Shown here in pieces: positions 16,095 to 64,000 of a stretch of DNA of 64,000 nucleotides (positions are counted from its first letter, which is position 1; every line of letters begins with the position of its first letter). The position numbers and the translations under genes are program-made. Origin of the DNA: Psammoneis japonica (lineage: Eukaryota); contig QPGO01000077.1 of NCBI GenBank assembly GCA_008632985.1, positions 124,001 to 188,000 on the forward strand, read 5' to 3'. The notes under the pieces are model-generated. The model was given only the letters and a program-made list of their open reading frames with translations, made no database searches and was not told the origin of the DNA.

Positions 16095-16659
16095 GGTTGT
16101 ATCGCTTGTTTCTTGCTACACTTCTAATGACAATCGTATCTTTCTGCTTTCCTCTGCTTTATCGATTTGCGTTCTTCGTTTTAGGCTCGTGTCAATCTTG
16201 ATTGACTTTTTGTGTGATGCGATTTTTCGATCGGCTCTCTCGTTGGTCGTTGGAAAATGTGGCTGATGCCTCCGTACGAGGATTTTGTACGAAAGCTCAT
16301 GTAGAAATTTAGCGTTCGCAAACGTGACACCAGTGTCTTTCCCACGAATTTGGTTCGTGGGAGGCGTTACGGAAGTTGCACTCCTGTTTCATTGTACGTA
16401 ACTTGAATACGAGAAATGACGTATGTACATTGTTATTGCTGCTCTACGACGCAGAAACGGTTTCGACGTCACGATGACGGCATCAGTGTTCCCTCTGCCA
16501 ATGCGAGGTACACAAATTTTGATAGTCGATCTTGCAACAGATGTCGTGTCAAATAAAAATGTCCAAAATCGCCGCCCGGGCGGGTGGGTTCACCCCGCCC
16601 CCCGCCACAGCCACACGACAGTGCACAATGCACGAGAGGAAAGAGAAAGCAACACATAA

Positions 16660-19600: not shown

Positions 19601-20100
19601 TCAGCTGAGTGTCTGTGTTTGTGACACCCTGCCACTTCTGAGAGAGCAGGCATGTGTTCCCCACACCCGGCCAGCTCAGAGCACCTCGGGTTTCTTTCAC
19701 ACTGGGTTGTTGCTTTTTCTCCTCCCAGTTGCAGTGGCATCATGTCGGTTTCAATCATCAACTCCACAATCAAATGCAACAAGAACAGCTCTTTCTAGCA
19801 TGTGGATGCATGCCATTGTCTCGACACTGCCAGCAGAGCTGCCTCGCTTTGCATGCCGCACCAGTGCCAATGCTGCAATGATGGCACACCGCCCGGTGAG
19901 AGTTCGGAGTGCCAATGAATCACGAGGAGTGAGTCGTTGAGTCACGAGCATTACGTCACCAAAACGTCAGCAAATGCCAGAAGGCCATTTTAGAAACATC
20001 TTGATAAAATTTAGATTTTCTGAAAAATAGCAAGCAATTTAGCCATTTTATTGTCAGAAAATGGTACTTTGGAGAAGGTTTTTCGCAAATGAAAAAAGGT
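16660..20100. mobile_element. TpA-depleted island of unidentified origin (decayed TE or gene copy)
   Basis: Clear compositional change between two normal genes; fragmented ORFs with no recognisable domain. Confidence 0.45.
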
Positions 20101-20180
20101 CAGAAATTCGCGTCTGAACGTTCGACAACGCCCTCTTGTTGTTGTTGACACTGTGAAGAGAAGAGAGAACAAAAACAACC

Positions 20181-43899: not shown

Positions 43900-45706
43900 T
43901 TACAGCGGGAGGTACAAGGGTTCCATGCATGGGTCATAACAGTAATTGAACTTAGGCCTTGGCTCTCCTTGACATCCAGGTGGAACAGCTCCTGTTTCGG
44001 GCCAACATAGGAGCCCTTCTTTGCACTGCCCGTCGTGGAAACACGTTCCCTGACACCTGTCGAGAGGGAACAGCTCAGGAACTAACTTGAATTTCCCAAT
44101 CTTTTCGACGAATGGCAGAGACGTCGGTCCAGTGGTCGCATAGGGAGTTGGCGAAGGAGTTGAGACAGGCGAGGAGGTCGGCGGATCGGTTGCGGGGGAC
44201 AAAGTCGGTGAACCAGTTGCAGGAGCCGTTGGCGCAGAAGTTGGTGGAGATGCGGTTGGTTCAGGAGAAGAAGGGGTGGTGCTGTCGTCGTAGCAGTATC
44301 GCACACCAGCTTCTGGCTCTCCTTTGCATCCAGGGGGGGCAACTCCTATAATTACAGAGCAAGGTGGCGTTAGCAAAATACGGTATGGGAGAAGCACAAA
44401 AGGGGAAGATTATGGAAAACAAACTTACCTGCGACAGGCCAACACTTGAGGTCACCACTACACTGATTATCGACAAAGCAGAATCCTTGGCACACATCCA
44501 AAGGGAATTTTTCTGGAACTCTTCCGAACTTTCCAACCTTTTTTAGATATTGGTCTTGCATATCTGACTGAGTTGGCGCAGGGGAAGGAGGCATGTCCTG
44601 TTCTTTGTAACAGTATCGCACGTCGGCTTCTGGTACTCCTTGACATCCTGGGGGGCTCACTCCTACAAGGGAAAGAGCGAAGTAGCGTAAGCAAATATTG
44701 ATGAAATGGATAGAGGAGAAAATGGGAAAAGAAACTTGCCTTTTTCAGGCCAACACTTGAGATCTCCGCTGCACTGTTTATCGCTGAAACAGAATCCTTG
44801 GCACACATCAAGAGGAAACAATTCTGGAACTCTTCCGTACTTTCCAACCTTTTTAAGGTACGGGAGTTCCATGCCTCCATCAGTTGGCGCAGGGGTAGGA
44901 GGCATATCCTGTTCTTTGTAACAGTATCGCACGTCGGCTTCTGGTTCTCCTTGACATCCTGGGGGGCTCACTCCTAAAGTGACAAAGAGCGAAGTAGTGT
45001 AAGCAAATATTGATAACATCCATAGAGGGGAAAGGGAGAAACGAAACTTGCCTTTGTCGGGCCAACACTTGAGGTCTCCGCTGCACTGTTTATCGCTGAA
45101 ACAGTATCCTTGGCACACATCCAAAGGGAACAATTCTGGAACTTTTTTGTACTTTCCAATCGTTTCAAGGTACGGGAGTTCCATACCGGCAGGAGTTGGC
45201 GAAGGGGTTGTGGTAGGAGGCATGTCCTCGGCTTTGTAACAGTACTGAATATTCATGTTCGCATCTCCTTTGCATCCAGGGGGAACCTCTCCTGAAACGA
45301 CAAAGATCAAATTAGTGTTAGTAAATCTTGGTAAATATAAAAAGGAAAGAGTGAAAAAAGGCATTCGCACCTTTCTGCGGCCAGCACTTAAATCCCTCCT
45401 TGCACTGGTAGTCATTATCGCAATCGCCCTGTAATGGTCAAGTAGAAATGTCAAGAAGATTTTGTGAGCAATTAATTCCAACTGTAGTCGCATCAGAGAG
45501 TCTCTCCCCGTTGCTTTACTCACCTTGCATCTACCAAGCGGAAACCTTTCGGGGTGCTTGTCATAATTTCCAATGTGTTTGAGAAAGACAAGGAAGCCGG
45601 AAGTTTCAGTCATTCCGCGTAGCCCAAAACTGTCGGGTTCTTCTTCACCGTTGGCCAAGAGTGGCGCCGCCATTGCCAAGGTTGCAAAAAGCGCTTTGAA
45701 GTTCAT
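43900..45706 (-). CDS. Frustulin-like secreted cell-wall protein, five ACR-type domains, multi-exon
   Basis: Signal peptide MNFKALFATLAMAAPLLANG; repeats of FPL..C(K/Q)GxC..D.QC..(G/D)L.CWP..G.PPGC.G.....YCY separated by Pro/Thr linkers. Confidence 0.85.
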
Positions 45707-46662: not shown

Positions 46663-47079
46663 CAACAGTGTAGGAGGAGGGATAATGAAGAGATTGTTTT
46701 GGTTTCCGGCTGACACGCCTTTGTTGCGAAAATACATGGGATTCTGAGCTCTTCACTTCTAATTCATAATCTTAAGAAAACCAGCTCTTGTGCTTTGCTT
46801 TACATTTTCTAATGTCTACAGCGTGACTTGCAACACACTCGAGCTAGAGTAGACGAGACAGAGACGAAAACTTTGGTCATGAAGTGCTCATGAGCTTGTG
46901 CTTTTCCTCGTAAACAAAAGAACGCAACGAACGCTATCGCACGCAACGCGACGTGTGGGACCGCACGCAACACCATCGACGAAAGCGGCGGTGTCTTCCA
47001 TGTCACCGAAGTGCACAGATGAGAAAGCTTAAAATGTGTCACTTGATGGCACAGCTCATTGAGTTAGGAGTTAGGTAGG

Positions 47080-48500
47080 GCCCTAGAGGCAACAATGCTT
47101 GACTTGCCCCACGGCAAGACGACAGCACGCAGCTTGCTCAAATCTCGATCGAGCCAAAATGACAATTGCCTCTGTTGAGTTCCAAACATGTTGCATGGGC
47201 AAAACCATTCATCTTCCATACAGTGTCATCAGGGCTTGGAATTGGATGTGGATGGCAGATGAGACATGAGTTGAGGTCGTGAAGAGGTCAGTGAGAAACC
47301 ATCCAGACTCCAACATCTTTCTTGGGAGATGGATCAAACTCGTGGAAAGCCTTGTGCTAACTGAATTTTTTTAGTTAAAGCACCAATGCTCTCCAACACA
47401 TCAACTTCTTTGTCTGCATTGTGTTGAAGAGTTTGTGGAGCAGTGTGAGCATTTGGACAACAAGGCTGAGATCCTCTTAGCTTGACTCGAAGCTTGGCTG
47501 GTGGGCCAGGAGCAGCACCGAGAGATCCCTCAAATGGACTCAAGTGACAACCAAATGATTCAAGCAGATCTTGCTGTTGGGACTCAGAGAGATGGCTGCA
47601 CTTCAAAGCCTTTTTATGGTTCCATGGCTGGCACAACTCTGCTGATGCTTTTTGCACTCATGACGAACAACACTGCATTCTTTTTCCATCATTGGAATGT
47701 GTGCAGTTCCATGGACAGGGCATGCACTGCCTGAAAATTATTTTCCACAGCTGCTGCCACCAGCTCCTTAACTCTTGCTGTCACTTTGATTCAAGAACCA
47801 GTTTCTGCCATGACAGTTGGATGGATTGCTTGGTGTTTCATCAATTTGTGAACCACTTTGAGGATTGTTTGGCTCCATTTGGTGCAAGCTCTCACAATGC
47901 TGGGCTTGTTGGTTTGCAATGCCCAAACATTGAATGTTTGCTTGGGTTTGTTCATTTTTCCAGCATTTGGGTCCAGACTTCTGGTGATCAAGGTGAGCTC
48001 CACTTCCACAAGTTTGGGGTGTGCTGCATGTTGTCATCTGCTGTTGCAAGTGAGAGCATGATGTTGGCAAGGTCATTGAGCTGTTGGAGAAACAACTGGA
48101 TTGCATGTTGCACAATTTGCTTTGTTGGAGACTGTGGCCAGTCTTTGGTGTCCACTGCAATGTTGCAGGTTGTCTTGGTTGAGACAAAATCCTCAAGCAG
48201 TGCATCAAATGTGTCTTGGCCTCATGGTCTTCACTCTGTTCTAGCATGTGCAAGATCTCCCTTTGTGTGACTTGATGTGCTTGCATGGTTGCAAGAGGAG
48301 ATGAGGAGAGATTGTGAGAGCAAATGCATCCAATGACCATCTTGATGTCTGGTGCATTGATCAACAATGTGTGTTTGTCAGAGGAGGCACACACTCAACT
48401 TGAAGCATGAGTGACTTAAATCAATCACTCTTCCCCACTCCATGGTGTGCATGTGACTGTGCACCATGACTCACGCAACCCATTTGAAAGCTCAGACATT
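47080..48500 (-). mobile_element. Decayed Gypsy pol (reverse transcriptase N-terminal region)
   Basis: PFEGSLGAAPGPPAKL...QPCCPNAHTAPQT...KEVDVLESIGAL and downstream VLPWGK, matching Gypsy RT with Tyr read as Cys/His. Confidence 0.7.
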
Positions 48501-50591
48501 GGGAAAAACCCTCAGCTCCTCTGATGCAGCATCACACAACAAATGTCAATCCACTTGACAATGTGCAACATCTGCAGCACTGGTGCAGCCCAGTTGGCAT
48601 GGACTTGCACTGATTGAAATGGGCCCAGAGCTTGAGCCTCCAACAATTGGCAGGATCAACAGACTTGGGGTTGGCGCATCTTGCCCACTTGACAATCAAA
48701 GGATCTGCTGACACCAAAAGATCTTGTTGATGAGCACTTGACAGCTGGCTCAAGGCTCAAATCATGGTCTCACATCCACCACTGCTGGAAATTCCAAAAA
48801 CACATCCTGCCAGAGGTCCGGCACTCCTGACTGAACAGATTGCAGCTCTCAGAAAAACAAACAAAGCAGGGCATGAGACACCACACAGCCAGCATGTCAC
48901 AAACTGTCTCATTGGCCTGTTAAAGATTTTCAGGAGGGTCAGCAAAAGAGCACAATTCACAGGACATTGGCTGCTGTTTGATGCATTCTTTCACAACCTA
49001 AGTTGGCTTGAGGATTGCATGACATGCAGTTGGCACATCTGTTGAGACTGCTGGATTGAGCAGCATCAGAGGTTCTCCCAACCAACAAACCTTCCTTTGT
49101 TGTCATGCACACAATGATTCAGTCAGGGATGAGCATGAGACAACCAAAAGTTTTGGAGCTTGTTGGAGACATGTGGCAAGGGGCTTCATTTTCAATGCAC
49201 ACTGGCTCAGTCAATCCAGCAATGGTGCCAATGCAACCAAGGGCACTGAGTTCAATCTCCACACCCCAACCAAACCACAACTTTCCACAGTTCAGTCAGA
49301 TCAACAGCAACTCAGGTCTACAGAATCAAAGGAACTTCTTGTTCCAGCAGCTTGCTAAAGCCAGGCCCAAGTTGCTTGCAATGACAACAAGCACTTTGCA
49401 TCAATGAGTTGCAGAAACAGCACAAATTGTTGGGAGATGATGAAAAATGAAAATGAGCACAAATCATTTTGCTTGCCACAAAGAAAAGACAACAATGGGG
49501 TGGGTGGGTTGCAGCAACATTTTGGCATGTGATTCAACCAATGAGCTCAAATCCAATGACAAGCTTGACTGCCCCTGGCTTTGTGGTCTGCAAAGCATGT
49601 AACAATGATTGTGCAGGTGCGTGTTGCACTGGTGGGCAAATTCAAAGCTTGCAAAAATGACAAATGAAGTGTGCAAAGTTCAACCCTTCTTAGACTCTTC
49701 AAACAGCACTCAACCAATGTCAAGGAGAGCAAGTGTGGGTCAGTCTTTGACTTGCATGGGAAACAACTAAAGAGCACTTGGTTTGTGGGTGCATCAATGT
49801 CCAAGGCCAAATCATTGCTTGGAAGTGCTTGTGCCAGCATTTTGCACACAAGACAAGCACACAACTTGGATGTGGGGCGAGATGCAGGTTTGTCCCTTGT
49901 CAACTTCACAGATGATGTGGGAGTGCTGGAGTGTCTTATTTCAAATGGAGCCAGAAAGGAAAATGGGGTTGGCAGATTGGTCATTTGGTTGAGAAGATCA
50001 ACTCCCACCCTTTTTTTATTTTGTGTTCAAACAGAGACAACAATGATCTCCCCAGTTGTGCCTCCACAAAGGGGCCAATGGAACCACCAAATTGGATTTG
50101 TCACTTTTCACAGGTGCATTGCTGAGGCACAGCCTGGGGGTGGTTTGCACACAAGCTCACATGTTGAAGACTGGCAGAGGTGGTTTTGGGCATGTTTTGT
50201 CACAGTTGCAACAAAGGGAACAACCAGCCCAACAGCATTTCTGTGTTTGTTGTTCAAAGTGAGCAATTCCACAGTCAAAAAGGGCAGTCTTCTGGAAACA
50301 CACAGTCAATCCACTGAGCCCAACCTTCTGAGTTTGCTGGACAAAGCACCAAACTTGTCAGGCATTTGTGATGCATGAGGGTCCAGCTTGGGGGGCATTG
50401 GCACAAGGTCACAAGAGAATCAGAGCCCCTCTCAAACCTTCGAAATCACGCTCGACAACGCATCGGCCTTGACAGCATGATTGTCTGTTATGACCGCTCA
50501 CACAATCTCGGAAACCTTCTGTCTTATCGCAAACTTTGCATCTCCCATGGCCCCCCAGTTTCGTCCCACCGGATTACAAACAGGGAGGCCC

Positions 50592-50624
<33 letters not shown>

Positions 50625-50706
50625 GGTGATTTGAATTAATCAATCGAGTCAACTCGCCTGTCCTCCACCACTTGGATTTTTTAATGCAACAACCTCAACC
50701 ACGTCA

Positions 50707-50777
50707 ACAACAACAGCCGGCCGCTGATGAAGCCACCGCGAAAGTCTCATTCTCCTGACTTCGGCCAACGTTGTTGT
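50707..50777 (+). ncRNA. Type I hammerhead ribozyme (minimal stem II)
   Basis: ggccg CTGATGA a gc-cacc-gc GAAA gtc-tcattctcct-gac TT cggcc; stem I extended by acaacaac/gttgttgt. Confidence 0.75.
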
Positions 50778-51218
50778 GCCTGCTGTTTGCCGAAATAGTT
50801 GGATAAATGTCCGATTAAGTGGCTCTACCTTAGCTGCTTGTATTTTTTGTTTGTCACATTTGACGGAGAATCGGCTGCGCCGATTCGTTCGTTCGTTCGA
50901 GAGAGAGAGAGAGCACTCACCACCACTCTCCCAACTCCGCAATCATGCCCGCCAGTGCGTTGGACTTGACCGCATGATTGTCTGCTGCAGTTAATCCTGC
51001 AACCTCAGAAACTTGCTCTTGCACCGCAACCTGCGCATCTCATCTGGCCCCCCAATTTCATCATACAAACAGGGTGGCCACTGAGAGAGAGAGAGAGAGA
51101 GAGCCAATGACACACCAACCTGAACTCAAATCAAATCAAGTCAATTGTTTGCTCTGTCTGTCCTCCCCACAGCAACAATGACTGGGATCTTTTTAACATG
51201 ACAACCTCAACCATGTAA

Positions 51219-51290
51219 ACAACAACAGCCAGCTGCTGATGAAGCCACCATGAAAGTCTCACTCCTGACTTTGCCCAAGTTGTTGTGCCT
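51219..51290 (+). ncRNA. Degenerate second hammerhead copy
   Basis: agctg CTGATGA agccaccat GAAA gtc..gac TT tgccc; core intact, stems I and II damaged. Confidence 0.55.
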
Positions 51291-52149
51291 GCCATTTGTT
51301 GAACAGTTGGATGAACATCCAAACTGGTGGCTCCCACCACAGCCACTTGCATTCTTGTCAGTCAAATTTGATGGAAAATTGGCTGTGCCAATTTTGTTTG
51401 TTCATTCAAGACAGGCATTGGGTTTCTGGAAAAGTGGCAGCAACTGTGGGTGACAAAGAACAGGACACTGTAAAACAGCTTTGGGGCTTTGGTCTCACAC
51501 ATGAGTTGGAGTTGCTGTCTTGCATTGCTGGAGAAAGGACAAGAGGACTGGGCATTGAGAGGTTGCTGGACAAACGCCTGAGACAGGCGAGTGCTTGGAC
51601 TCAGTCTTCTGTGACTTGGATTGGTGGTGGGACAGACCCAACAAACCAAGTGCAGTGGATGACCATCACAGACTTGGACGATGAGTTGGCATCTTGCACA
51701 AAGTCAGGTTGGATGTGTGCCATTGGGTCATTGCAGAAAGCAGGAAGCCAGTTTCTAAAACACAAGTGGGGCACATGTGACACAAGTGGCAGATGTGGTG
51801 CAACCTGATGTCTGGGCCACCAAGATTGATGGCTCCAACAAGTGCTTTGAGGTGCCATTGGATGATGCTGACCCTTCATTTTGCAGGGCAATGAGGCTGC
51901 ACCAGCATTTGAATTGGACACAATGGCCATTGTTGATGGCAGCTCTTGCATGGTGCATGAAAGTGGGATCACTCCAATGGATGAGGAATTTGGGGCATGT
52001 TGTTGCCAGGCAAACAACCCAAGAATGATGAGCAGAAGTGAGCAATCAATCAGTGTCTGGGAACAGAGCTTGCTTTTGACATTGGAGCAGATGGCAAGTG
52101 AGGTGGTGCAGCAATGAAGCAAGCAAGAGGTCAGGGTGGATGCCTGGTC

Positions 52150-53400
52150 AGAGCTCGGCACATCAAAACTTGTTGTTTGACACCCATGAACACAGCATGC
52201 CAACAGAAATGACAGACATGAGTGCACAGCCAAAGCAATCACTAAAAACATGTGTTTGCTCAAGTGGACAGCAAGGCCAAATGGCATTCTGCCTCACACA
52301 AGATTCAAGATCATGGGACATTGGGCAATGCAGCAGCGTCAATTGAGGATGGAGTTGAGTGCTGTGCTGGTGAGAAGGAAAAGAAGAAGGTTGCAACAAG
52401 CTGCTGGAAGACACCAGTTGCTTGGAAGGACAGCAGCACATCATGAGCAAAATTGAAGGAGAGCCAGGATCTGCCTTGGAGTGAACATGGAGAAGGTTCA
52501 GACCAACAATGGCTGCATGATTTGCACTGCTCACCAAGGTCCTGCACCATGTTGGCTGTCAAGATGGCAGAAGGCTTGTTGGATGAGGATGGCAATGGCA
52601 AAGTGTCAAAGAACACAAAGGGCCCCACCCCAAAGCACAAGCTGGAGTTGGATGTGACAGTGAAGTCATGCCCAGATTTGGCAGACAGGTGTTTGCAGTT
52701 GACTGGCATCTGTTGCTGTGTGATCAATCTGCTGGGTTTTGTCAACATTTTGCGTGAAGTCTCAGCCCTTTCTCAGCATCAGGCAAATCCAAGAAAAATG
52801 CATTTGGAGGCTTTTTGGGCCAAGTGTTTTTGCACATGAAGAAGCGCCAAAATGCTGGAAGGTTGGATTTGATCCAAAGGTGACAGTGGCTGACACAAGT
52901 CTGTCATTTTAGCTGGAGCACAGGCTGGGCCAACTTTTGTGAGGACACCAAGGAGGACATGCCACAGTGGATGCCCAAGCCTTGTGGCAACCCAGCAAAT
53001 GTCTGTGCATTTGTTGATGCCAACCATGTGGGCAATGTTGTCAATTGCAGGTCTTGCAGTGGGAACCCGATGAAGATCAACAACCCACCAATTGTTTGTG
53101 CAGCAACATTTGGGGTTGAGTTGGTGTGGCAAGGAGCACTTGCAAAGAGTTGATTGTTGTGCCACATTGCAAGCTTTGCATCTTTGGTGTGCCGTTGGAA
53201 GGGCCGCCAAGCATTTTGTGTGACAATCACCAGAAGTGCTCCCAAGCTGGCTCTTCACAAGAAGCACAATGCCATCAACTGTCATGTGGTCAAAGAAGCT
53301 GTGGTGGATGGGACAATTTGAGTTGGAAAGGAGGGAGCAGACACAAACTTGGTGGATTTGTTGATGAAACTGGCCGCTGTTGAGTGGCCCTGGAAACTCT
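52150..53400 (+). mobile_element. Decayed Ty1/copia RT-RNase H fragment
   Basis: HKLELDVT...RCLQLTG...EVSALSQHQANPR..HLEA; MPKPCGN..CAFVDANHVGNVVNCRS; HCKLCIFGVPLEGPPSILCDN; KKHNAINCHVVKEA. Confidence 0.85.
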
Positions 53401-54036
53401 GTTCTTGCATCTCTTTTGGTGATGCCCCGGTGCCAAGGCTGCGCACTTGTGGCTCACGTCCCTCCCACGTGCAGTTGCCCCCCCAAGGCCAGCATGGCTT
53501 GTGGCTCAACTGGGTTTTGTGGTTTGCCTGTCACTGAGAGGACGTCATTGGGACCACAGAATCGAATGAATCTGGATGGAGCAGTCTCTCCCTGGTCGGG
53601 GCATGCGTGCATGTGATGTTGCACATTCCCTCTCACCATCCAAGTGCGACAAGGTTCTCATTGACAGCACTGCTTCTCTCTACATTGGACTAAAGGTGCC
53701 ATGCTCATTCTGTCGTCGCATCGGGATTTATGGCACCAGATGAAAGTCGACAGACTGGCAATCGAATGGTGAGCTAAAATAGAGAGGAGCTTTAGAACTG
53801 CATTCTCAACGGTCCTCGTAGGAAAAACGTAGGGGCCAGAACTGAGACGACTTGGAATGACTTGTGGGTGTCCTTTTCTCAGTAGATGGCCTGCAGCAAT
53901 GGAGTGCACAACAAGAATTCTCGACAGAAACCAGAAGTTTCCATTCGGCTTCAGAATTCAAAGGAAGACAAACAGACGGCCACTCTTGGCTCAGGCTCTA
54001 ATCTCACATCAATGCAAGTGCTTGCAGTGTTTGAGG

Positions 54037-54888
54037 TCAGGCCAAACTAAGGGAAGCGACATGGATCATGGTGGAACTCTTGCACGCAAATTGGTGAGCG
54101 CACATGAGGTCGTTGACGTCTTCAAACGTCGCACCCATGCAAGTGTCTTTTTTGATGCAGGACACCGTGTTGACGTCGTAGATCGTCGCTCCGTTGCAGC
54201 TGTCCTTGTCTTGACAGAGGAGGCTGTCACAATGAGACACTGTGGCTCCATCGCAAGTTCCAGCGGGGCAAACAATGTCTCTTCCCATCGCAACCTGAGC
54301 AGTGATGTCAGTGCCATCGACTGCCACGCTGCAGGGGGGACCAGCGCCGTTGAGGATGACACCGTCACAACTCTTGGGCCCCTCACAAATGAGGGATGTA
54401 GTTGCTCCCGTAATGATGGCACCATCACAGGCATTCGGCACGGAGCACTTGACAGATGCGGCATCGTTAATTTCGGCGCCCGCACAGGCGTTGTCTGCCG
54501 TGCATTCGACGAAATCAACATTGAAGAATTTGGCGTTTTGGCAAGCCGAAATCAACGAACAAATCGTACGGTTGTAATCGGTCACTTCCATGTTAAGGCA
54601 AGCACAAGCACCGGAGCAGTCTACCAGGCCGCCTCCAGATGCTCTACCGGTAAACTTGGCATTGTTACAAGCCTGGTATCCACAACAACACGCCCCTAAG
54701 TTTTCGGTCACTCTGGCATATAAGACCGCTCGATAGCCATACGCGTAAACACATGGTGCCTCCACAGTTGCATAGTAGGCGGCAGCACACCCGTACGCGT
54801 AGACATCGGCGGATTTAATGTCGGCGTAAATAGCGGAATAGAAGCCATAAGCATACAAATACGAAGTGTCGATCTCCGCAGTGTCGCA
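54037..54888 (-). pseudogene. 3' part of a secreted Cys-rich repeat gene interrupted by the copia
   Basis: CDTAEIDTSYLYAYGF... with repeats of about 18 aa (C....AC..A.I); continues the frame of 61316-61170. Confidence 0.8.
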
Positions 54889-55096
54889 TGTGAAGATATC
54901 ATATTTCGTGCGTCATTGCATTATGACTCACTGTCCCAAAAATGACTCATAAACATCGGTCTTCAATGAGAGACGAGGAGCCTCTCACATCCTCACAATT
55001 TTACTACAGCTGTTATTGTAACACCTATTTGATCGCCCCAATACTTACTAGTCATCACTAGCTACCGCTACTGATCTGCTTTTGAGCATTTAAACA
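54889..55096 (+). repeat. 5' LTR
   Basis: tgtgaagat...tttaaaca; aligns without gaps to 60962-61169. Confidence 0.97.
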
Positions 55097-55112
55097 CGCT
55101 TCCTCTGCGCTA
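55097..55112 (+). promoter_or_regulatory. Primer-binding site complementary to the tRNAiMet D-arm
   Basis: cgcttcctctgcgcta directly follows the LTR; the reverse complement tagcgcagaggaagcg resembles initiator tRNA UGGCGCAGCGGAAGCG. Confidence 0.7.
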
Positions 55113-55118
55113 AGTAAC

Positions 55119-56429
55119 ATGTCTGACGCCTCTTCAGACGCTTCGTCCGTGTCTGGACCGGAGCTAGGAGATGTTCCCGAAGATGTCCCATTTGCATTGG
55201 CTCCGGCACAAGCGATCACCACGGTCATCGATTGTCGTTCGAGTGCGGGTCGTAAGCTTTTTGAGCAAGCTACCAAGCCGCTGGACGAGGAATTATTCGA
55301 TTGTGAACCAGGAGACCTGTGCCAGTTCCTCAAGAACTTGGAAGACAGAGCCAGAGAGTTTGGGTGGAATGATGAGAACGGAGCATTCATGATCCCAGAA
55401 GACCACGAAGACATCCTGGAATCCGAGAGGTCTAATCTGTTGACCGACTATGGTCAGATAGACCTAGAGAGGATCCGGGGCTTTGAAGAATCCTACATCG
55501 GTAACGAGAGTCGCGCAGCGCAAGATACCTGTCTAGCGTATCGCTGCCTAATGAACTCCGTGTCGAAAGCCGGAAAGGATAAAGTGAGGATCTGGGAATC
55601 AGAATACAAGATCGGAGATCGTATGTCCGGAAATCTCCTTCTCAAGATCATCATCAGAGAATCCCACCTCGACACGAACGCCACGACGAGTACGATCCGA
55701 ACGAAATTGAGTCAACTCGACCTCCATCTCCCAACGATCGGTCATGACATCTTGAAGTTCAACCAGTGCGTGGCATTATTGCTTGCCGCCCTTAAGTCAC
55801 GAGGCGAAACCACTGAGGACCTGCTTACGAACCTCTTCAAGGGGTGCCTGGCTGCTTCCGACAAAGTTTTTGTCAAGCACATCGAGCGTAAGCAAGAACA
55901 GTGTGAAGAGGGCGAGGACATGTCGGCGTCGCAACTTATGAACCTCGCGGGCAACAAGTACAAGAACCTGCTTCAGAAATCGCCATGGAACGCCCCTGGT
56001 GCGTCTGAAGAAAAGATCTTGGCTCTCCAAGCTCAAGTGGAGGCCCTCAGCAAGAAATCCCACAAGAAGACGGGAAACAAGGGAAAAGACCACGACGCGC
56101 CTCAAGGTGCTCAGAAAGACGGGAAGCCCACGTGGTTGAAGAAACACAGGCGTCCCAAACGCGACCAGTTGACCAACCCGAGAACTTGGAAAGGTGCCGC
56201 ATGCTGTTGGTGTGAGAAGAGTGCCGGCGGCAAGTGTTCTGGCAAGTGGCGTGTCCACAAGCCCTCCCAATGTGAAGGCAGAGAAGGCAAGAACAAGCCA
56301 CAGAAAAACGAGTCTACAGCACCACCCCACAAGAAACAGAAGGGACCTGACGGACACCCACGGCTCAAGCTTGACAAAGCATGCCAAGCCGCAGTGGACG
56401 GGCAGGACTCGGGCGAGGAGTCTCAATGA
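55119..56429 (+). CDS. Copia gag
   Basis: PFALAPA, GNLLLKII, DTNAT...IRTKL, NLFKG(C), CCWC...KWRVHKPSQC knuckle. Confidence 0.85.
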   Translation: MSDASSDASSVSGPELGDVPEDVPFALAPAQAITTVIDCRSSAGRKLFEQATKPLDEELFDCEPGDLCQFLKNLEDRAREFGWNDENGAFMIPEDHEDILESERSNLLTDYGQIDLERIRGFEESYIGNESRAAQDTCLAYRCLMNSVSKAGKDKVRIWESEYKIGDRMSGNLLLKIIIRESHLDTNATTSTIRTKLSQLDLHLPTIGHDILKFNQCVALLLAALKSRGETTEDLLTNLFKGCLAASDKVFVKHIERKQEQCEEGEDMSASQLMNLAGNKYKNLLQKSPWNAPGASEEKILALQAQVEALSKKSHKKTGNKGKDHDAPQGAQKDGKPTWLKKHRRPKRDQLTNPRTWKGAACCWCEKSAGGKCSGKWRVHKPSQCEGREGKNKPQKNESTAPPHKKQKGPDGHPRLKLDKACQAAVDGQDSGEESQ

Positions 56430-59400
56430 CTCCTTGAGCACGGCTGCAGCGGTTGTGATGGACATGGGTTGGAAACCATGGCGTCGAAGTGTTTTGCGAT
56501 CATCAAGGCAACTGCGCTCTTTGCCTGGCAGGCACTCGCCTGCAACCACACAACCATTGTGATGACGTCGCTCTCATTTGAAAACAAACGAGTGATCGAA
56601 CAAAAGCTGCTAGCTCATGCTCCAATTTTACTGTCGATGGCGATGGTCCTGATCTGCATTTGCTTCTACGCGACCGACCCCAACTGCAAGCCCGGATGCA
56701 CGCCGAAACGGAAGAGATGGCACCGGGTGCGACGAGGGTGGACCATGCTCACTGAAGGTACATGCAAGATGGGGACCAGCATTGAGCAGATTGTGGGAAG
56801 CATCAACACTGCCAACAAACCCAGAAGAGGGAGAACAATCAAGATCCAACGTGCCGCAACAAAGGTGAAACCCAGACAGAAGAGGCGAACATGGGGCTCG
56901 ATTATGGCGCTAGCCATGGTGGCCATGCAAGCCAAAGGGAAACACATAAAAGAGCACACCGTCACGTTTGATGCCGATTCTGGGCCAGTCGGAGTGGACA
57001 ACAGATGCACAGGTTGCACATCCGACCGAACAGAAGACTTCATTGGCGAGCTGAGAGACACAAGAAGAACCATTAAGGGATTCGGTGGCTCTCGAACACA
57101 GGTGTGAAAGTTGGTGCCCTGCTGTGGAGATGGAGTGACGATGAGGGAAAGACACACAAGTTCGTAATCCCCAACTCATTCTACGCACCTGACGGCAAGG
57201 TCCGCCTGCTGAGTCCCCAACACTGGGCAAAGGCACTGAGAGACAACAAGCCGATCGAAGGAACTGGATCAGAGACAAACTCGAAAGAGGTCACACTGTT
57301 CTGGAACCAACGAAAGCATCGACTGACTGTGCCGTTGAGCGAGACTACGAACGTAGCCACCTTCGCTCAGCACCGGGTCATCAGAAGTTCGAAGCATTTT
57401 GCGCCGACGCGGACATCGATCCAGCGAAAGAAGCAGACGATCCTCTCCTTGCACTAGATGCAGCAGTCGTCAGTGATGACGAGGACGAGGAAGAGACGGA
57501 TGTCCAGTTCGATGCAAAAAGCATGCCAAGGAATGGCAACCTGAACCCCAGGAGGTGGCGCAAGAGACAGGGTTGGCTGCCGATCAGCGCGTCCACCCAC
57601 TGGGAGCAACGTTTGACATAAATGGGCCAACAAGTGGTGGCAACTCAGAGGGAGCACCGACTGCTCCACCGCCACGAGTGGTGGAAGATGAAGAAGACAG
57701 ACAGCCAGATGCGGACACGGCGCTGCTCCTCAAGTGCCACCAACAATTTGGGCACATTGGCTTCACAAAGTTGCAATGGATGGCAAAGATGGGCATTCTA
57801 CCAAGACGGCTTGCAAAGTGCAACGTACCTGCTTGCTCGGCATGCCTGCGCGCAAAGGCGACCAAGAGAAAATGGCGCGACAAGGCACGGAACGATGATG
57901 CCGAGATAGAAGCTCCAACAAAACCAGGCCAAATTGTCTCAGTGGATCAATTGGCATCTCCGACACCGGGTCTAATCGCACAAATGACGGGCTTCTTGAC
58001 CACAAAACGGTGCAAGTGCGCCACAGTCTGTGTCGACCAGTGCTCCAAATTGGGTTGCGTTCATCTGCAAAAGACAGCAACGGCAGCTGAAACGTTAGAG
58101 GGAAAACAAGCTTTTGAGTTGTGTGCAAAGAGTTGTGGCGTGACCGTTCAGGCTTGCCATGCTGACAACGGAATGTTCAAGGCCAACGACTGGGTGCATG
58201 TGTGCAGGAGACAAGGGCAACAACTGACGTTCGCTGCCGCAGGCGCTCATCACCAAAATGGCACGGCGGAGCGACGGATCCGAGAGCTCCAAGAGCTCGC
58301 CCGAACAATGTTGATCCATGCCAACAGCCGCTGGAAGAAGTGCATTGCCGCAAATTTATGGCCCCACGCGATTCGCATGGCCTGTGACGCCATCAATCAC
58401 ACGCCCAACCTCCAACACAAAGACCGATCAAGCCCACTCCAGCTGTTTTCCAACACGAAAGTTGCCACCAATCCAAAGCACTGGAAACCATTTGGTTGCC
58501 CAGTGCACGCATTGGACTCCGCATTGCAATCAGGTCCACCGTGTCACAAATGGAAAGACAGATCAAGGGTTGGAATGTGCTCAGGCCGAAGCCCACAACA
58601 TGGCAAGAACGTGGCCCTGGTGCTCGACCGAGAGTCGGCACCAGTGAGTCCACAGTTCCACGCAAAATTTGATCCATCATTCCATGCGCTGAAGCAAGAC
58701 ACTTGCGATTCTCTGTGGCAAGTGAAAGCCGGGTTCGTTGCTCAGAGGGAGACAAAAGGAACCAAGAAGAGTGGCAAGACCAAAACGGCTCCCACAAGTG
58801 CTCCGGATCGTCCCAAGAAGAAGCGCGCACGAGCTTCAGAGGGAGCGGGGCAAGGCAAGAAACGAAGAACCATTCGTTGGGCTGACCAACCAACACGGCC
58901 ACAAGATGGCGATGCTGCAGTGACCGACAGCCAATCGGTGTCCGAACGAGAGATGCGCCGAGAGCCCAATCACAACAAGGCCAACGCATCCGAAAGGACT
59001 GAATCTCTAGAAGCACCTCCACATGAGGGCGAGTCTGATCAAGCACGAGACAGTCATGCTGAACCAAAAGTGACACGATCAGGGCGCAAGAGCCAACCGG
59101 TCAGCAGATTGATTGAGTCCATGGAGACTGAGATCAAGAAAGACACTGAAGGAGGCGTCGAAGGAGAACTGCTGTGCTTGGCCGCACTGCATCCTCGAGA
59201 CTCGCAAGCCCTCCAAGAAGAAGTCGCAAATCCCCTCCTTGCCTGCAAAGCATCAGCAGATCCTGACACCATGCACATGCACCAAGCCATGAAAGAACCG
59301 GACCGCAAGGAGTTCCTCAAGGCGATGCAAAAAGAGGTGAAGGATCAAATGGAAAATGGAAACCCACTCCATCATTCCAAGATCACAGGTGAAACAAGAC

Positions 59401-60891
59401 AGAAAAGTGCTGCCTGCAGTGTGGCAAATGAAGCGAAAGCGAGACATGCGCACCCGAAAGGTGAAGAAGTGGAAAGCGCGACTTAACATTGACGGCTCGA
59501 GGATGAGAAAAGGAAAAGACTACGATGAGACGCATGCGCCGGTTGCATCACGAAATTCAGTGCAGCTGCTGCTCACCTCAGTGGGAGCACATGGGTGGCA
59601 TTCAAAGCAACTGGATCATGTCCTCGCTTTTCCTCAAGCACCGGTCGAAAAGGATCTCTACATGGAGATTCCGTCCGGATTCGAGCTCGAAGGCGCCAAC
59701 ACCAAGGATTGTGTCCTGCGCTTGCATCGGAATGCACACGGGCAGAAGCAGGCAGGGCGAGTCTGGAACAAGTATCTCGTGGACAAGTTAGTCAACAAGT
59801 TGGGTTTCGAGCAATCCAAGGTCGACGAGTGTGTGTTTTATCGCGGAAAAACGATTTGCCTTCTCTGCACGGATGATTCTTTGCTCGCAGGCCCTGATGA
59901 ATCTGAGATCAACAAGATCATAGAGGAAATCAAGCAAGCAAAGTTAGATGTCACGGTGGAAGGCGATATTCAAGATTTCCTTGGCATAAACATCACCAGA
60001 AAGTCGGATGGAACGATACACCTGACGCAACCCCACCTGATCGACCAGATTCTGAAAGACTTACGACTTGATAAACCGAATATCGTCGGAAAAGACACAC
60101 CTGCAGCTTCATCCAAGCTCCTATCCAGGCATTCAGAATCAAGACCATTTGATAATTCCTTCAATTACAGGTCGATCATCGGTAAGCTGAATTACTTGGA
60201 GAAATGCACCCGAAGCGACATCGCATGCATCACGCACCAGTGCGCGAGATTCACTGCAGACCCGAAGGTAGAACATGGCGAGGCCATACGGTGGCTAGGC
60301 AGACATCTGTATGCTACGAGAGACAAAGGTACAATTCTGAAACCAGATTCCAAAAAGGATTTGGAGGTGTACGTAGACGCCGACTTCAGTGGCAATTGGG
60401 ATCGAAAGGAAGCTGCGAGCGACAGAGATGCCGCAAGATCCCGTCACGGGTATATCATCACTTACGCTGGTTGTCCGATCCTTTGGAAGTCTCAGCTACA
60501 GACTGAAATAGCGTTGTCCAGTGCCGAAAGTGAATGTGCCGGATTGTCGCATGCCTTGCGAGAGGCCATCCCTGTGATGGAAATGTTGAAGGAACTGAAG
60601 TTGCGAGGGCATCCAATCAACTCGACGACGGTGAAGATGCACTGCAAAGTTTTTGAGGACAACAGCGGCGCGCTGGAAATGGCGAAGGTGACACAAGTGC
60701 AGACCGCGCACCAAGCACCTCAACGTGAAGCTGCACCATTTCCGTGACTGTGTCAGTCGAAAGGAGATCTCAATCCACTCTATCGACACCACTGCACAAT
60801 TGGCCGATTTTCTAACTAAAGCGGTCAATCTGGACGTTCTGCTTTGGTTACGACCGAAAGTAATGGGTTGGCAGGTATTTGAAATACTTTA
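56430..60891 (+). pseudogene. Copia pol (protease, integrase, RT, RNase H) with several frameshifts
   Basis: FDADS..VGVDNRC; HQQFGH..C..C; VSVDQL; HADNG; HHQNG.AERRI; WKARLNIDG; GQKQAGRVW; CTDD; YVDADF; FEDNSGA; ADFLTK. Frameshifts near 57100, 57365, 57555, 59370 and 60690. Confidence 0.93.
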
Positions 60892-60947
60892 AAAGTGGAT
60901 TCGCGCGCAAAGTGCGTCAAACCTTCATTTTCGAGATGCATGAGATC

Positions 60948-60961
60948 AAAATGAGAGGGAG
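60948..60961 (+). promoter_or_regulatory. Polypurine tract
   Basis: aaaatgagagggag immediately before the 3' LTR. Confidence 0.85.
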
Positions 60962-61169
60962 TGTGAAGATGTCATATTTCATACGTCATTGCATTATGAC
61001 TCACTGTCCCAAAAATGACTCACAAACATCGGTCTTCAATGAGAGACGAGGAGCCTCTCACATCCTCACAATTTTACTGCAGCTGTTGTTGCAACACCCA
61101 TTTGATCGCCCCAATGCTTGCCAGTCATCACTGGCCACCGCTGCTGATCTGCTTTTGAGCATTTAAACA
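60962..61169 (+). repeat. 3' LTR
   Basis: Matches the 5' LTR with 14 transitions and no indels. Confidence 0.97.
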
Positions 61170-61316
61170 GTCGCAACCATAATGTCCGTAGCAGCAGGCA
61201 TGGGTGGACGAGATCGTGGCATCCTCGCACTCACATGCATCGTCGCAATAATTCTGTGAGGCGGCACAGCGGAAGATCCAGGCAAGAACCAAAAGTTTTG
61301 CAAGAGAAACAAGCAT
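61170..61316 (-). pseudogene. 5' part (signal peptide) of the interrupted Cys-rich gene
   Basis: MLVSLAKLLVLAWIFRCAASQNYCDDACECEDATISSTHACCYGHYGCD ends at the target duplication. Confidence 0.8.
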
Positions 61317-61899
61317 GGTGTGTGTGTGTGTGTGGGTGGGTTTTCTTTCTTGCACTTTTAGAGTAGAGAGGTAGAGTCGTCGTCGCAACTTCTTGTATTG
61401 TGGCACGAAATCTTTTTGCACCAATCCATCGGATGAGCAACTTCAAGCCGGAACTGGCATGGAAGACACGCAGAATTGCACAGGAAGCGTTTTACATACA
61501 ATGAAGGCATGTGTCTATCCAGTCCAGCTTCTGGCAGAAGTCGAGCAGCTGCGCAGTTACAATGGCTGCACACGTCAGTGGAAATTCGTGGAAAAAGTGC
61601 AACCAGCAGCTGTTGCTGTGATGACTGTGTTCTTTGTCATGAAACATGGCAGCTGTCGCTGACAACTGTTGTTCTTGAATGCCGGCAAGCAGTGGCGGGC
61701 CCCGCACGTAGAAACACATGTGGACGAGCGTCACGCTTCGAATCATCATTTTGGGGGAGTCGCGGTGACTCACACACTGCAGTGTTGTGGTTTCGCGTGA
61801 CTGCTTTTTCTCACAACCGATGCTTCCATTCCATGCATGCATTGCATCAACATGACGACCGAAGCAGTGCCAAACCTTCTCAGCACCCCAGAACAGAAA

Positions 61900-64000
61900 G
61901 ACAGATGTGTCTGCAGCTGGGGTGCAGAACGCCGCAAAATGCAATGAATCTTCAGCACTCTTCTCCGTGCAGAAGAAGATGAACCCCGCGGTGGTCGCTG
62001 CATGCGTCTGCGTCTTTCAGGTGACTCAGAAAAGGTGTGGAAATGGTGACAGGCTGCACTGACAAACCTTGGCATGAAAGAACAAGACGCTGAAGGAGCG
62101 GAGCGTGCTCCCACAGCCAAGACACCATTGGATGCCAGGACAGCTTCGATTTTTCGACTGTGGCAAACATCAGTCAACTCCTAAGATTCTTTGTTGTTGG
62201 AAACAAAACAATCACCTCGGGACAACCACGGAGCAGTTCTTGACAAACAAAAGGCTTTTCAGAAGCTGCGCAAATGCCAAGAGAGTTTCAATCAGATGAC
62301 GCTCAGCAACCACATCCAACTCAAAGAAAAGGCAGACAACAAAGAGAATGGTGCATCAGTGAATGATTTGTTGGAAAAGGTGAAGGGTGAATTGTCGCGC
62401 ATTAAACAGAACAACAGAGCCAGGACTTGTCAAAAGCAGGCATGAGCTGCTGAAGCAGTCAGCACCCCAGAACTGACACGCAATGAAAGTGAAGTGGAAG
62501 AAGTCGCCACAGACTTTCTTGACAGCAATTCTGTGCAAAGGCACCAGCTGACATCTGCAAAATGGTCCTCCAACAATCCAGCAGCATGCAAAGATTTGTT
62601 TGGGTTTCAATCATTTCCAGAACTCAAGTTGATGGTGTCGGCTTTCTTTCGTGAGGTTCTTCTTGCAGTGCCAGATGCATGTTTTGACAAGAAGGGAAAA
62701 AAGCTGAAATGTCATCCTCCAAAGCCAACAACACATTTGAGCAGGTTCTTGTCATCAAGTGCTTCATGCATTGTTGTCCTGTGTGAAAGCATGCAGGATG
62801 GACCTTTGGCGTTGCGCGTTGAACCATTTCCGATTGCCTGGACCGTTGGGCACCTTGCTGGGCCACGCTTGGTGAGTTTCTATCCACACTTCCCACACAA
62901 AGAAATTGTTTTGACAAGGAACGTCCAGATAAATTCATTGAACACAGACTGGAAAAGACTGGCTTTCTCATGGACGGCAAGGACACCTTCTTGACAGAAG
63001 CAAAGCGCAAGGATGATGCTGCATGTTGCAACCAACAAAGCAACAAAATGCATGGCTCAGCCACTTGATGGGTTAATTTTGTGTCATGTTGTGTGCTGAC
63101 TTGTGAGCACACTGGAGCATTTGGGGCAAGAGCCAAAGAGAATGCCCTTGTTGAAATGACAGGTGAATGCCCGGTTGAGACAGCACCATTGGCAGAATGG
63201 AAGGACCATGCTCTGAAGCATCCAAGTCATGAGATGTTGAAATGCTGGATGGCGCTTGATGATGTGGTGATGGGAAAGACTTTGGATGGTTTGACTGAGA
63301 CTGTTGCACCAGAGTCGCTTCATGCATTGTTGTCCTGTGTGAAAGCATGCAGGATGGACCTTTGGCGTTGCGCATTGAACCATTTCCGATTGCCTGGACC
63401 GTTGGGCACCTTGCTGGGCCACGCATGGTGAGTTTCCATCCACACTTCCCACACAAAGAAATTGTTTTGACAAGGAACGTCCAGATAAATTCATTGAACA
63501 CAGACTGGAAAAGACTGGCTTTCTCATGGATGGCAAGGACACCTTCTTGACAGAAGCAAAGCGCAAGGATGATGCTGCATGTTGCAACCAACAAAGCAAC
63601 AAAATGCATGGCTCAGCCACTTGATGGGTTAATTTTGTGTCATGTTGTGTGCTGACTCATGAGCACACTGGAGCATTTGGGGCAAGAGCCAAAGAGAATG
63701 CCCTTGTTGAAATGACAGGTGAATGCCTGGTTGAGACAGCACCATTGGCAGAATGGAAGGACCATGCTCTGAAGCATCCAAGTCACAAGATGTTGAAATG
63801 CTGGATGGCGCTTGATGATGTGGTGATGGGAAAGACTTTGGATGGTTTGACTGAGACTGTTGCACCAGAGTCGGAAGACGAGTTGAGCTTGGTTGAAGAG
63901 GGAGAGAGCAACAGAAGGAGACAAGGTGTGGTTTTGGATTTGTCAAATGCAGACTGGAGCAACATCGGATCTGAAAGTGACAAAAAGCTGGGTCTGCAGC
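61900..64000 (+). mobile_element. Decayed PIF/Harbinger-like (DDE_Tnp_4) transposase
   Basis: ACKDLFGFQSFPELK..., FGVAR.TISDCLDRWAP.W (HTH-like), LMDGKDTFLTE..R...SNKMHGSA. Confidence 0.65.
62761..63872 (+). repeat. 556-bp tandem duplication (62761-63316 and 63317-63872)
   Basis: gcttcatgcattgttgtcctgtgtg ... gttgcaccagagtc occurs twice with few substitutions. Confidence 0.95.

Follow-up and report, generated by a model that had tools for sequence, protein, structure and literature searches.

Transitions at TpA, probably made after integration, in a Ty1/copia retrotransposon and its flanks in Psammoneis japonica

Why should a retrotransposon with long open frames carry cysteine or histidine at positions where its relatives have conserved tyrosines? 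The question is raised by a Ty1/copia-type element in a stretch of 64,000 bases from Psammoneis japonica (contig QPGO01000077.1, positions 124,001 to 188,000), called here the window, in whose coordinates all positions are given. An earlier reading of this DNA, made from the letters alone and referred to below as the sequence-only reading, had attributed these residues to the loss of the dinucleotide TpA, replaced by TpG or CpA. Our analysis indicates that a process acting on chromosomal DNA after integration very probably turned TpA into TpG and CpA in this copy and in its flanks.

The element occupies positions 54889-61169 and is a complete Ty1/copia-type long terminal repeat (LTR) retrotransposon, with LTRs of 208 bases (TGTG...AACA) in direct orientation that enclose gag, protease, integrase, reverse transcriptase and RNase H in this order (Table 1). 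Its assignment to Ty1/copia follows from the direct TG...CA LTRs with a short target-site duplication and from an integrase located upstream of an RVT_2-type reverse transcriptase. PF13976 matches residues 87-126 of the frame at 57480-59486, and PF07727 matches the frame at 59341-60747 (E = 3.7e-39). The integrase frame has no match to Pfam rve, which is not evidence of decay because the intact relatives also list only PF13976 and PF07727. The gag frame belongs to the same arrangement, with tblastn matches upstream of pol in 55 of 80 related loci. The pol region is colinear with intact polyproteins of 1250-1420 residues, yet tblastn finds it in six pieces separated by five frameshifts; together with CTDD in place of YxDD and the alteration of 34 of 458 conserved columns, these frameshifts show that the copy lacks the intact coding capacity of an autonomous element. 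A tblastn search of the whole window with five polyproteins revealed no second copy of the family. In X1, a public sequencing run of the same organism in which 56% of the sampled words of 54600-61300 are present, depth is 53-72 in the unique flanks and 236-933 in the element, and the 498 contigs matched to the window range from less than 90% to more than 99% similarity. Two further runs, X2 and X3, gave no contigs on the window, and no RNA run was among those containing the stretch. Since the depth of the element is far above that of the flanks, the family is multi-copy, and the element is one copy, now dead, of a young, multi-copy Ty1/copia family.

Table 1. Parts of the copia element, its altered tyrosine codons and its flanks (o/e, observed/expected ratio)
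Feature	Position	Strand	Evidence or remark
Target-site duplication, upstream copy, GTCGCA (5 or 6 bases)	54883..54888		downstream copy at 61170-61175, past the 3' LTR
5' LTR (TG...CA), little mutated, 16 TpA	54889..55096	+	direct repeat of 60962-61169, 93% identity
gag reading frame, stop to stop; Tyr to Cys at 55845, Tyr to His at 55878	55086..56429	+	tblastn
Main tract within the element that is poor in TpA, TA o/e 0.14 (56000-59700)	55900..59800		TpA counts, o/e values
pol piece 1, protease region, frame 3	56700..57098	+	tblastn, five intact polyproteins
pol piece 2, frame 2; frameshift near 57097-57103	57104..57364	+	tblastn
pol piece 3, frame 1; frameshift near 57363	57370..57474	+	tblastn
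pol piece 4, frame 3, gag_pre-integrase and integrase region	57501..59363	+	Pfam PF13976, E = 5.8e-5
Sites in pol piece 4: Tyr to Cys at 58011, 58017, 58155, 58578; Tyr to His at 58365, 58506, 59274			
pol piece 5, frame 1, reverse transcriptase and RNase H	59368..60690	+	Pfam RVT_2, E = 3.7e-39
Sites in pol piece 5: Tyr to Cys at 59857, 59866 (YxDD box reads C..CTDD), 60535; Tyr to His at 59533, 59737, 60304, 60550			
pol piece 6, C-terminal end, frame 2; Tyr to Cys at 60749	60692..60871	+	tblastn
3' LTR, heavily mutated, 5 TpA	60962..61169	+	14 positions differ from the 5' LTR
Downstream flank, single copy in X1, TA o/e 0.04-0.23, CpG partly depleted	61170..64000		
Upstream flank, single copy, TpA still present near the element	53261..54888		

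The motifs on which the sequence-only reading was built, eleven in pol and one in gag, were all found at their places, and the residues that it expected from a copia consensus are the actual consensus of 60 full-length relatives. The reverse-transcriptase active site (59854-59877) reads ICLLCTDD in the window and MYVLYTDD in the consensus, and its last four codons are TGC ACG GAT GAT (59866-59877), as had been quoted. The other pairs, window first and consensus second, are NAHGQKQAG and NIYGQKQAG, ETHAPV and ETYAPV, SECAGLSHAL and SEYTGLSYAL, KRCKCATVCVDQCS and KRYKYATVYVDQAS, QACHADNG and ENYHADNG, WPHA and WPYA, FGCPVHAL and FGCPVYVL, GMCSGRSP and GIYLGRSP, and DPDTMHM and DPDTMYM. LDHVLAF is a weaker case, its column holding Y in 31 and F in 29 of the 60 relatives. 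In the gag motif LFKGCL, the cysteine at 55845 (TGC) aligns to tyrosine in 50 of 50 relatives.

The consensus comes from a MAFFT alignment of the first 60, by id, of 97 relatives of 1200-1560 residues. In total, 1257 pol codons of the window fall in well-occupied columns, and 458 of these columns are at least 90% conserved. Tyrosine is conserved in 23 of them, where the window has 8 tyrosines, 8 cysteines and 7 histidines. All conserved cysteines (14 columns), aspartates (29) and glycines (39) are kept, as are 20 of the 21 histidines. Four of 18 conserved valines and four of 19 conserved threonines read alanine, the latter always by ACC after a T becoming GCC, and three of 15 isoleucines read methionine, threonine or valine. 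In gag, 3 of 60 conserved columns are altered, two of them from tyrosine to cysteine or histidine. The codon classes expected from a loss of TpA are those found: TAY to TGY or CAY, and GTA, ATA, TTA and ACN after T to codons for Ala, Met/Thr/Val, Ser and Ala, respectively.

These columns establish the direction of change. Thirteen of the 34 altered columns in pol are explained by TA to TG, twelve by TA to CA and one by TA to TG or a transversion, and the rest comprise one CG to CA, four transversions and three multi-base changes; TG to TA or CA to TA does not occur among them. The proposal that protein motifs fix the direction as TA to TG/CA is thus borne out by 25 of the 34 columns (plus the ambiguous one), with none in reverse. 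The restriction to TpA was assessed by an opportunity test, in which we counted the single-base ancestors that would bring back a residue shared by 80% or more of the relatives where the window residue occurs in at most 5%. This test was preferred to a mass reversion of TG/CA to TA, since a blind version would erase genuine TG/CA and a guided version would be circular. Restoring ancestors amounted to 21 of 165 for TA to TG and 14 of 168 for TA to CA. Outside TpA there were none among 497 for A to G and none among 307 for T to C. Among the remaining classes, CpG decay gave 1 of 428, transversions 14 of 5880, and TG to TA or CA to TA 1 of 72. The spectrum is therefore confined to TpA as far as A to G and T to C are concerned (35 of 333 at TpA against 0 of 804 elsewhere), a bias that the sequence-only reading had made decisive in advance. 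Both strands were changed about equally, as seen in the ratios of TA to TG over TA to CA in the conserved columns (13:12), in the opportunity test (21:14) and in the LTR pair (8:5).

It had also been suggested that the process inactivates elements by missense changes and not by stop codons, leaving long open frames. This is supported, with a qualification. Changes of TA to TG or CA can only remove TAA and TAG; no pol piece contains an in-frame stop, and the combined density of these two triplets on each strand is 4.2 per kb in the mutated tract and 15.9 per kb in normal DNA. The frame is not simply open, since pol is broken by the five frameshifts, and the damage is thus not due to missense alone. 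The missense changes would presumably inactivate the encoded proteins.

Cysteine and histidine might be natural in a divergent but functional subfamily, with a low TpA content that is native or due to a GC-biased process such as biased gene conversion. Lineage-specific residues are conceivable because even the nearest relatives share no more than 70-74% identity with the element in the reverse transcriptase, and a few environmental loci are TA-poor too (L024, o/e 0.19; L080, 0.21). Relatives that naturally bear cysteine or histidine, for which the sequence-only reading had asked to look, were not found, the window residue occurring in 0-7% of the relatives at each listed column. Among 240 relative proteins, cysteine or histidine stands at 62 of 4467 tyrosine columns; 37 of the 62 come from four proteins with the same spectrum as the window, and the other 236 proteins have 25 in 4405. 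As a control, we scored 80 related metagenomic loci, picked by the peptide patterns RLLSPQHW and YHADNG[IV]F, a choice that under-samples copies mutated in the second pattern; scoring used the coordinates of protein P0123 and the 450 columns where P0123 equals the consensus, and minus-strand matches were skipped. Tyrosine was replaced by cysteine or histidine at 14 of 22 columns in the window and at 25 of 1352 in the 80 loci (Fisher p = 4.6e-18), with at most 4 in any single locus. When all conserved columns were considered, 33 of 449 were altered in the window and 3390 of 28573 in the pooled loci, so the window is otherwise well conserved and the excess is specific to TA codons and not a sign of general decay. 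In addition, the alterations include invariant catalytic positions such as those of YxDD, and none of the 804 opportunities at A or T outside TpA showed a change. The organism's other copies still have TA at three codons examined, tyrosines persist in the TA-poor environmental loci, and the window copy has its frameshifts. A native state is thus already contradicted by the confinement to TpA, the tyrosines conserved in relatives and the frameshifts, and we regard it as practically untenable.

Four of the environmental loci (L024, L080, L022 and L038) are poor in TpA (o/e 0.19-0.33) and in CpG (0.17-0.50) and mostly keep their tyrosines, that is 5 of 6, 3 of 4, 5 of 6 and 5 of 6, respectively. 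Low TpA alone is consequently no proof of the process.

The LTRs reveal when the changes happened. The two LTRs of a retrotransposon are identical when it integrates. Here they differ at 14 of 208 positions, 13 of which are TA against TG/CA and one CA against CG, and no difference lies outside pyrimidine-purine (YpR) steps. TA stands in the 5' LTR in 12 of the 13 cases. The absence of background substitution between the LTRs indicates that the element is young and that the rate at TpA is far above background. The number of TpA per 200 bases is 11-15 at 54601-55200 (flank, 5' LTR and start of gag), 0-5 at 55801-59800 and 5-9 at 60001-60600, and it is low again across the 3' LTR and the flank beyond. 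Both the TA-normal patch (about 54400-55900) and the depleted patch that comprises the 3' LTR and its flank straddle an insertion junction. Mutated patches are a few hundred to a few thousand bases long and ignore the borders of the element. Unequal LTRs, changes on both strands and affected flanks outside the element establish that the process acts on DNA after integration.

The same data bear on an ADAR-like A-to-I editing of the element's RNA or cDNA before integration, an idea with some appeal because ADAR prefers a 5' U and retrotransposons pass through RNA. RNA editing would yield A to G on the sense strand only, whereas TA to CA is as common as TA to TG (12:13 and 14:21), and equal change on both strands excludes editing of genomic RNA or of one cDNA strand. 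Moreover, LTRs edited beforehand would match after integration, and the single-copy flanks beyond the target-site duplication would not be depleted as they are; instead, the LTRs differ at 13 TpA sites. Animal ADAR hyperediting of double-stranded RNA, that of retroelements and viruses included, shares with our case the change of A to G with a preference for a 5' U or T, and differs in acting on RNA, on one strand and on both LTRs alike. ADAR is not known outside animals. Contradicted by the strand balance, the unequal LTRs and the affected flanks, pre-integration editing of this type is highly improbable.

Composition sets the depleted part of the element apart from its relatives. The o/e of TA amounts to 0.14 within 56000-59700 and to 0.25 across the whole of pol, against a median of 0.61 (range 0.19-0.98) in 80 relatives, and it is 0.57-0.63 in the TpA-rich parts of the element, the 5' LTR and the start of gag. 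The copia tract has a CpG o/e of 0.78 and a TG/CA o/e of 1.3-1.65, and GC is 0.54 in the depleted tract against 0.48-0.51 around it. The opposite polarity would be that of repeat-induced point mutation (RIP), whereby C to T changes at CpA/TpG would have made the TpA-rich 5' LTR and gag start, the TG/CA-rich interior being original. The LTR differences taken alone cannot be polarised, X1 agrees at 54898 with the 3' LTR (TG) and not with the 5' LTR (TA), and diatom DNMT4 enzymes are described as related to the fungal RID protein in the available part of PMC9998398. The conserved residues, however, polarise 25 of 34 changes as TA to TG/CA and none in reverse, the reverse class accounts for 1 of 72 opportunities, and the intact relatives, at 0.61, resemble the TpA-rich parts and not the interior. 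An origin by a RIP-like process is already contradicted for the coding part, and we find it hardly credible.

Likewise, the wider comparison with RIP shows likeness in kind and opposition in sign. Both consist of dinucleotide-specific transitions at the DNA level in transposons, with leakage into single-copy DNA and skewed dinucleotide indices. Under RIP, C becomes T mainly at CpA, so that TpA and stop codons arise and GC drops, whereas the A:T to G:C changes seen here remove TpA and stop codons and raise GC; the RIP polarity is not that of the element, as judged by 0 of 34 altered columns, 1 of 72 opportunities and a TA o/e of 0.14. RIP in ascomycetes is defined by its repeat dependence and its premeiotic stage. 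The copia family is multi-copy (depth 236-933 against 53-72), and flanks at single-copy depth are depleted as well.

Other copies of the family in X1 carry the same kind of difference. X1 and the window differ at 127 places, 119 of them transitions; from window to X1 the counts are 40 A to G, 36 T to C, 21 C to T and 22 G to A, with 8 transversions. Twenty-nine of the 36 sites listed are transitions at YpR steps. TA in the window faces TG/CA in X1 at 8 of them, and the converse holds at another 8; TG/CA in the window faces CG in X1 at 8, CG faces TG at one, and CA faces TG at 4. The last group was dropped as proof of a TA ancestor, given that a CG ancestor produces the same pattern, and such sites were used only where the protein consensus decides. 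Codon 57185 is GCA (Ala) in the window and GTA (Val) in X1, the consensus being Val; codon 57379 is CAT (His) in the window and TAT (Tyr) in X1, the consensus being Tyr. At codon 57954, GCA (Ala) in the window and GTG (Val) in X1 are independent products of GTA, as the consensus of the relatives is Val. The X1 contigs also have one base more at 57096/57097, 57363 and 57524 and one base fewer at 59363 and 60690. These indels coincide exactly with all five frameshift sites, so the frameshifts are private to the window copy or to its assembly. Only site 59363 adjoins a short base run (three C), and the five sites do not look like long-read homopolymer errors.

In the flanks, an X1 contig over 61140-62750, at single-copy depth (66) and TpA-poor, shows 1 difference in 1611 bases, and another over 53000-53285 shows none. 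A third contig, covering 53261-54934, runs into the 5' LTR and hence shares the insertion; it has 14 differences and 2 indels in 1676 bases, and the 12 substitutions listed are all YpR transitions, in both directions. These upstream differences suggest that the process has been active since the insertion and is possibly still running. The element lies inside a minus-strand reading frame (54037-54888 and 61170-61442). When the empty site is rebuilt by removing the element and one 6-base duplication, a minus-strand open reading frame (ORF) of 372 amino acids spans the site; it has a signal-peptide-like start followed by a Cys- and Tyr-rich repeat protein and no Pfam match.

Agreement with X1 also matters for the possibility that the pattern is an assembly or base-calling artefact, with modified bases misread so that TA and CG appear as TG/CA. 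Heavily modified transposon islands are where such errors would cluster, and the window departs from X1 at many YpR steps and five indels. Nevertheless, X1, which may be the source sample, reproduces the depleted DNA at 61140-62750 and at 53000-53285; the differences among the sites listed go both ways (TA in the window at 8, in X1 at 8), whereas an artefact would be one-way; and two public proteins from other assemblies have the same spectrum. An artefact of this kind is in our view very unlikely.

These two unrelated proteins belong to a set of four among the 240 public relatives that carry the signature of tyrosine changed to cysteine or histidine. The signature is established beyond the window both in other copies and among environmental relatives. 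Protein P0093 has 15 of 16 conserved tyrosines replaced in this way, along with Val to Ala, Leu to Ser, Ile to Val/Thr/Met and Thr to Ala; P0113 has 12 of 15, along with Val to Ala, Leu to Pro and Ile to Thr/Met. P0022 has 6 of 16 and P0038 has 4 of 15. P0093 and P0113, which lie on separate JGI contigs and share 62-64% identity with the window in the reverse transcriptase, also show Arg to Trp/Cys/Gln/His. On the strength of their protein sequences, we take all four to be hypermutated elements in other public assemblies, in which the signature recurs.

The element lies among other depleted DNA. Analysis of the window showed TA o/e of 0.33-0.70 and CG o/e near 1 at 11-16 kb and 20-46 kb, and TA o/e of 0.02-0.20 with CG o/e of 0.04-0.58 at 1-11 kb, 47-53 kb (to 53500) and 62-64 kb. 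In the depleted blocks TG and CA have o/e mostly near 1.8-2.0, and the block borders are sharper than 1 kb. A mass balance of 21.6 kb of depleted against 32 kb of normal DNA gave, per kb, 4.5 against 37.1 TA (-32.6), 18.3 against 56.7 CG (-38.4) and 220 against 144 TG+CA (+76.5), and the gain of 76.5 roughly balances the combined loss of TA and CG, 71.0. In the copia tract CpG is almost intact while TpA is nearly gone, so the two losses are separable and that of TpA is the faster. Decay of CpG by deamination of 5-methylcytosine also yields TpG/CpA in silenced repeats and probably accounts for the missing CpG of the islands (1-11000, 47000-53500 and 62000-64000); it cannot remove TpA, and in the copia element, where it explains 1 of 428 opportunities, it has left CpG almost intact with TpA nearly gone.

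The TpA that survive in depleted DNA were compared with those of normal DNA in an exploratory count made without a composition-matched control. TTAA keeps 0.72 of its density in normal DNA, and CTAA/TTAG keep 0.39. ATAT falls to 0 (90 in normal DNA), ATAC/GTAT to 0.008, and GTAC is almost gone. This suggests a neighbour rule by which an adenine followed by A is spared. The 3'-neighbour preference at the inferred mutated sites themselves is biased by the structure of tyrosine codons and was set aside in favour of these survivor contexts.

Several observations concern the depleted DNA elsewhere in the window. Thirty ORFs of at least 150 amino acids from the islands free of TA and CG matched no Pfam family except for a sub-threshold CHRD match. 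A smaller TpA-poor patch at 16500-20300 (o/e 0.07-0.23, CpG 0.41-0.81) lies inside a gene-rich normal stretch, and the three ORFs of at least 150 amino acids that overlap it matched no Pfam family. Tandem duplications occur in the depleted blocks at 62761-63873 (98%), 9944-10575 (89%), 7650-7904 (93%) and 50426-51414 (71%), and their copies differ mostly by CG, TA or CA/TG alternatives at YpR steps. The copies of a tandem repeat in normal DNA (44255-45356) differ mainly by transversions and other changes. Elsewhere, the window contains long ORFs without obvious introns, including a P450 (closest relative at 62% identity), a RING-UBC protein and a sterol-sensing-domain protein. An Rfam scan of the window gave 0 matches, and two protein-atlas look-ups on host genes gave no usable match.

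The process that we favour can be put as a sequence of steps. Adenine would be deaminated to inosine at 5'-TA-3' in DNA, giving A:T to G:C transitions at TpA, on both strands about equally and in patches that cross the borders of the element. Through these transitions TAY codons became TGY or CAY and conserved tyrosines cysteine or histidine, including both tyrosines of the reverse-transcriptase YxDD box. The activity may be an enzymatic genome defence against silenced or foreign DNA, of the kind measured in mutation-accumulation lines of Bigelowiella natans. The near-total CpG loss in the older neighbouring islands would be due to a second, slower process, most simply the deamination of methylated cytosine.

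A mispairing modification of thymine would give the same pattern. Here the TpA process would be the same and the chemistry would fall on thymine, a modified T (5-hydroxymethyluracil or J-like) mispairing with G and changing T to C. TpA is self-complementary and T to C equals A to G on the other strand, so sequence tests cannot separate the two. Dinoflagellates replace T by 5-hydroxymethyluracil, preferentially at TpA. As far as the accessible part of the one preprint on such a signature shows, the only published proposal is an ADAT2-like adenine deaminase, itself a proposal (10.64898/2026.01.13.699255). We consider the thymine chemistry unlikely, though it deserves to be kept in mind.

That preprint, on mutation-accumulation lines of B. 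natans, is the single earlier description of a TpA-directed A:T to G:C signature in the literature found. It reports that, of 231 de novo mutations detected in two viral regions integrated in the genome, 230 were A to G or T to C (Mettrop et al., bioRxiv 10.64898/2026.01.13.699255). All of those A to G or T to C changes were on TpA, in giant-virus and virophage regions, at about 1000 times the background rate, and reverse-transcriptase and DDE-endonuclease domains were over-represented among coding sequences depleted in TpA; an ADAT2-like adenine deaminase was proposed by its authors (10.64898/2026.01.13.699255). Neither diatoms nor CpG are mentioned in the portion of that preprint available (10.64898/2026.01.13.699255). 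The changes in the window are of the same type, being only A to G or T to C at TpA, on both strands, clustered by region in foreign or silenced DNA that includes single-copy sequence, with the loss of TpA coupled to a gain of CpA and TpG. The differences are that B. natans is a chlorarachniophyte (Rhizaria) and the organism here probably a diatom (stramenopile); that viral DNA was affected there, and an LTR retrotransposon and its flanks here; that the TA o/e was 0.45 in the viral region there and is 0.03-0.2, near saturation, here; that the neighbouring islands here are almost without CpG; and that a de novo rate was measured there, while our case is built on sequence comparison.

The relatives of the element bear on which organism is involved. 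In the reverse transcriptase, identity to the closest public relatives is 58-74%, with the nearest at 70-74%, and the named ones are all from diatoms (Fragilaria crotonensis, Cylindrotheca closterium, Chaetoceros tenuissimus and Attheya). A diatom is made probable by these names and by the intron-free long ORFs of the window, and the sequenced B. natans strain, for which proteins are public, is an unlikely source. Because of this, the window looks like a second lineage for TpA hypermutation. The element resembles CoDi-type Ty1/copia elements of diatoms in having gag and then pol, integrase before reverse transcriptase, RVT_2 and gag_pre-integrase domains and short LTRs; it differs from them as a dead copy with five frameshifts and at least 25 missense changes at conserved sites, and it is not assigned to a CoDi group. 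The accessible parts of two papers on diatom transposons (PMC2806351, Maumus et al. 2009; PMC8147415) do not mention hypermutation, deamination or dinucleotides.

Some results weigh against a single TpA-directed process as the whole explanation. The loss of CpG is decoupled from that of TpA, minor in the copia element and extreme in the islands, so that the composition of the islands cannot be credited to one process. The five frameshifts are not explained by a pure transition process. Codon 57849-57851 is CGC (Arg) in the window and TGC (Cys) in X1, with Tyr (0.80) as the consensus. An ancestral TpA here seems to have been altered at both of its bases, an outcome that one TpA change cannot produce and that a strict TpA rule would not predict. 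No deaminase gene was seen among the reading frames of the window. Finally, X1 may be the window's own source sample, and its agreement with the window is therefore not independent proof against an assembly artefact.

Beyond this locus, we lean slightly towards the wider view that diatoms or a close algal relative own a DNA-editing defence that changes TpA to TpG/CpA in transposon islands. It would be active now, as two genotypes that share the insertion differ at TpA sites in the adjoining single-copy DNA; it would spread into flanking host sequence, as in the disrupted gene, and largely spare TpA with a following A, particularly in TTAA; and, with CpG decay, it would leave silenced DNA almost free of the self-complementary steps TpA and CpG. 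Together with Bigelowiella, this would make such a defence widespread across the SAR supergroup (stramenopiles, alveolates and Rhizaria).

In transposons so mutated, long frames stay open in all six phases while Pfam signals fade, and such elements will be mis-annotated as genes or missed as repeats. Polarising the changes by conserved tyrosine codons needs no close outgroup, and among 240 public proteins it led to two more elements that are hypermutated. If the organism is a diatom, the process occurs in a second, ecologically dominant and genetically tractable lineage, on ordinary LTR retrotransposons and almost to saturation, and since transformation and editing work in several diatoms, a search for the enzyme would be testable. 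If the wider view is true, TpA editing would be the mirror image of fungal RIP and a widespread SAR defence instead of a one-species curiosity.

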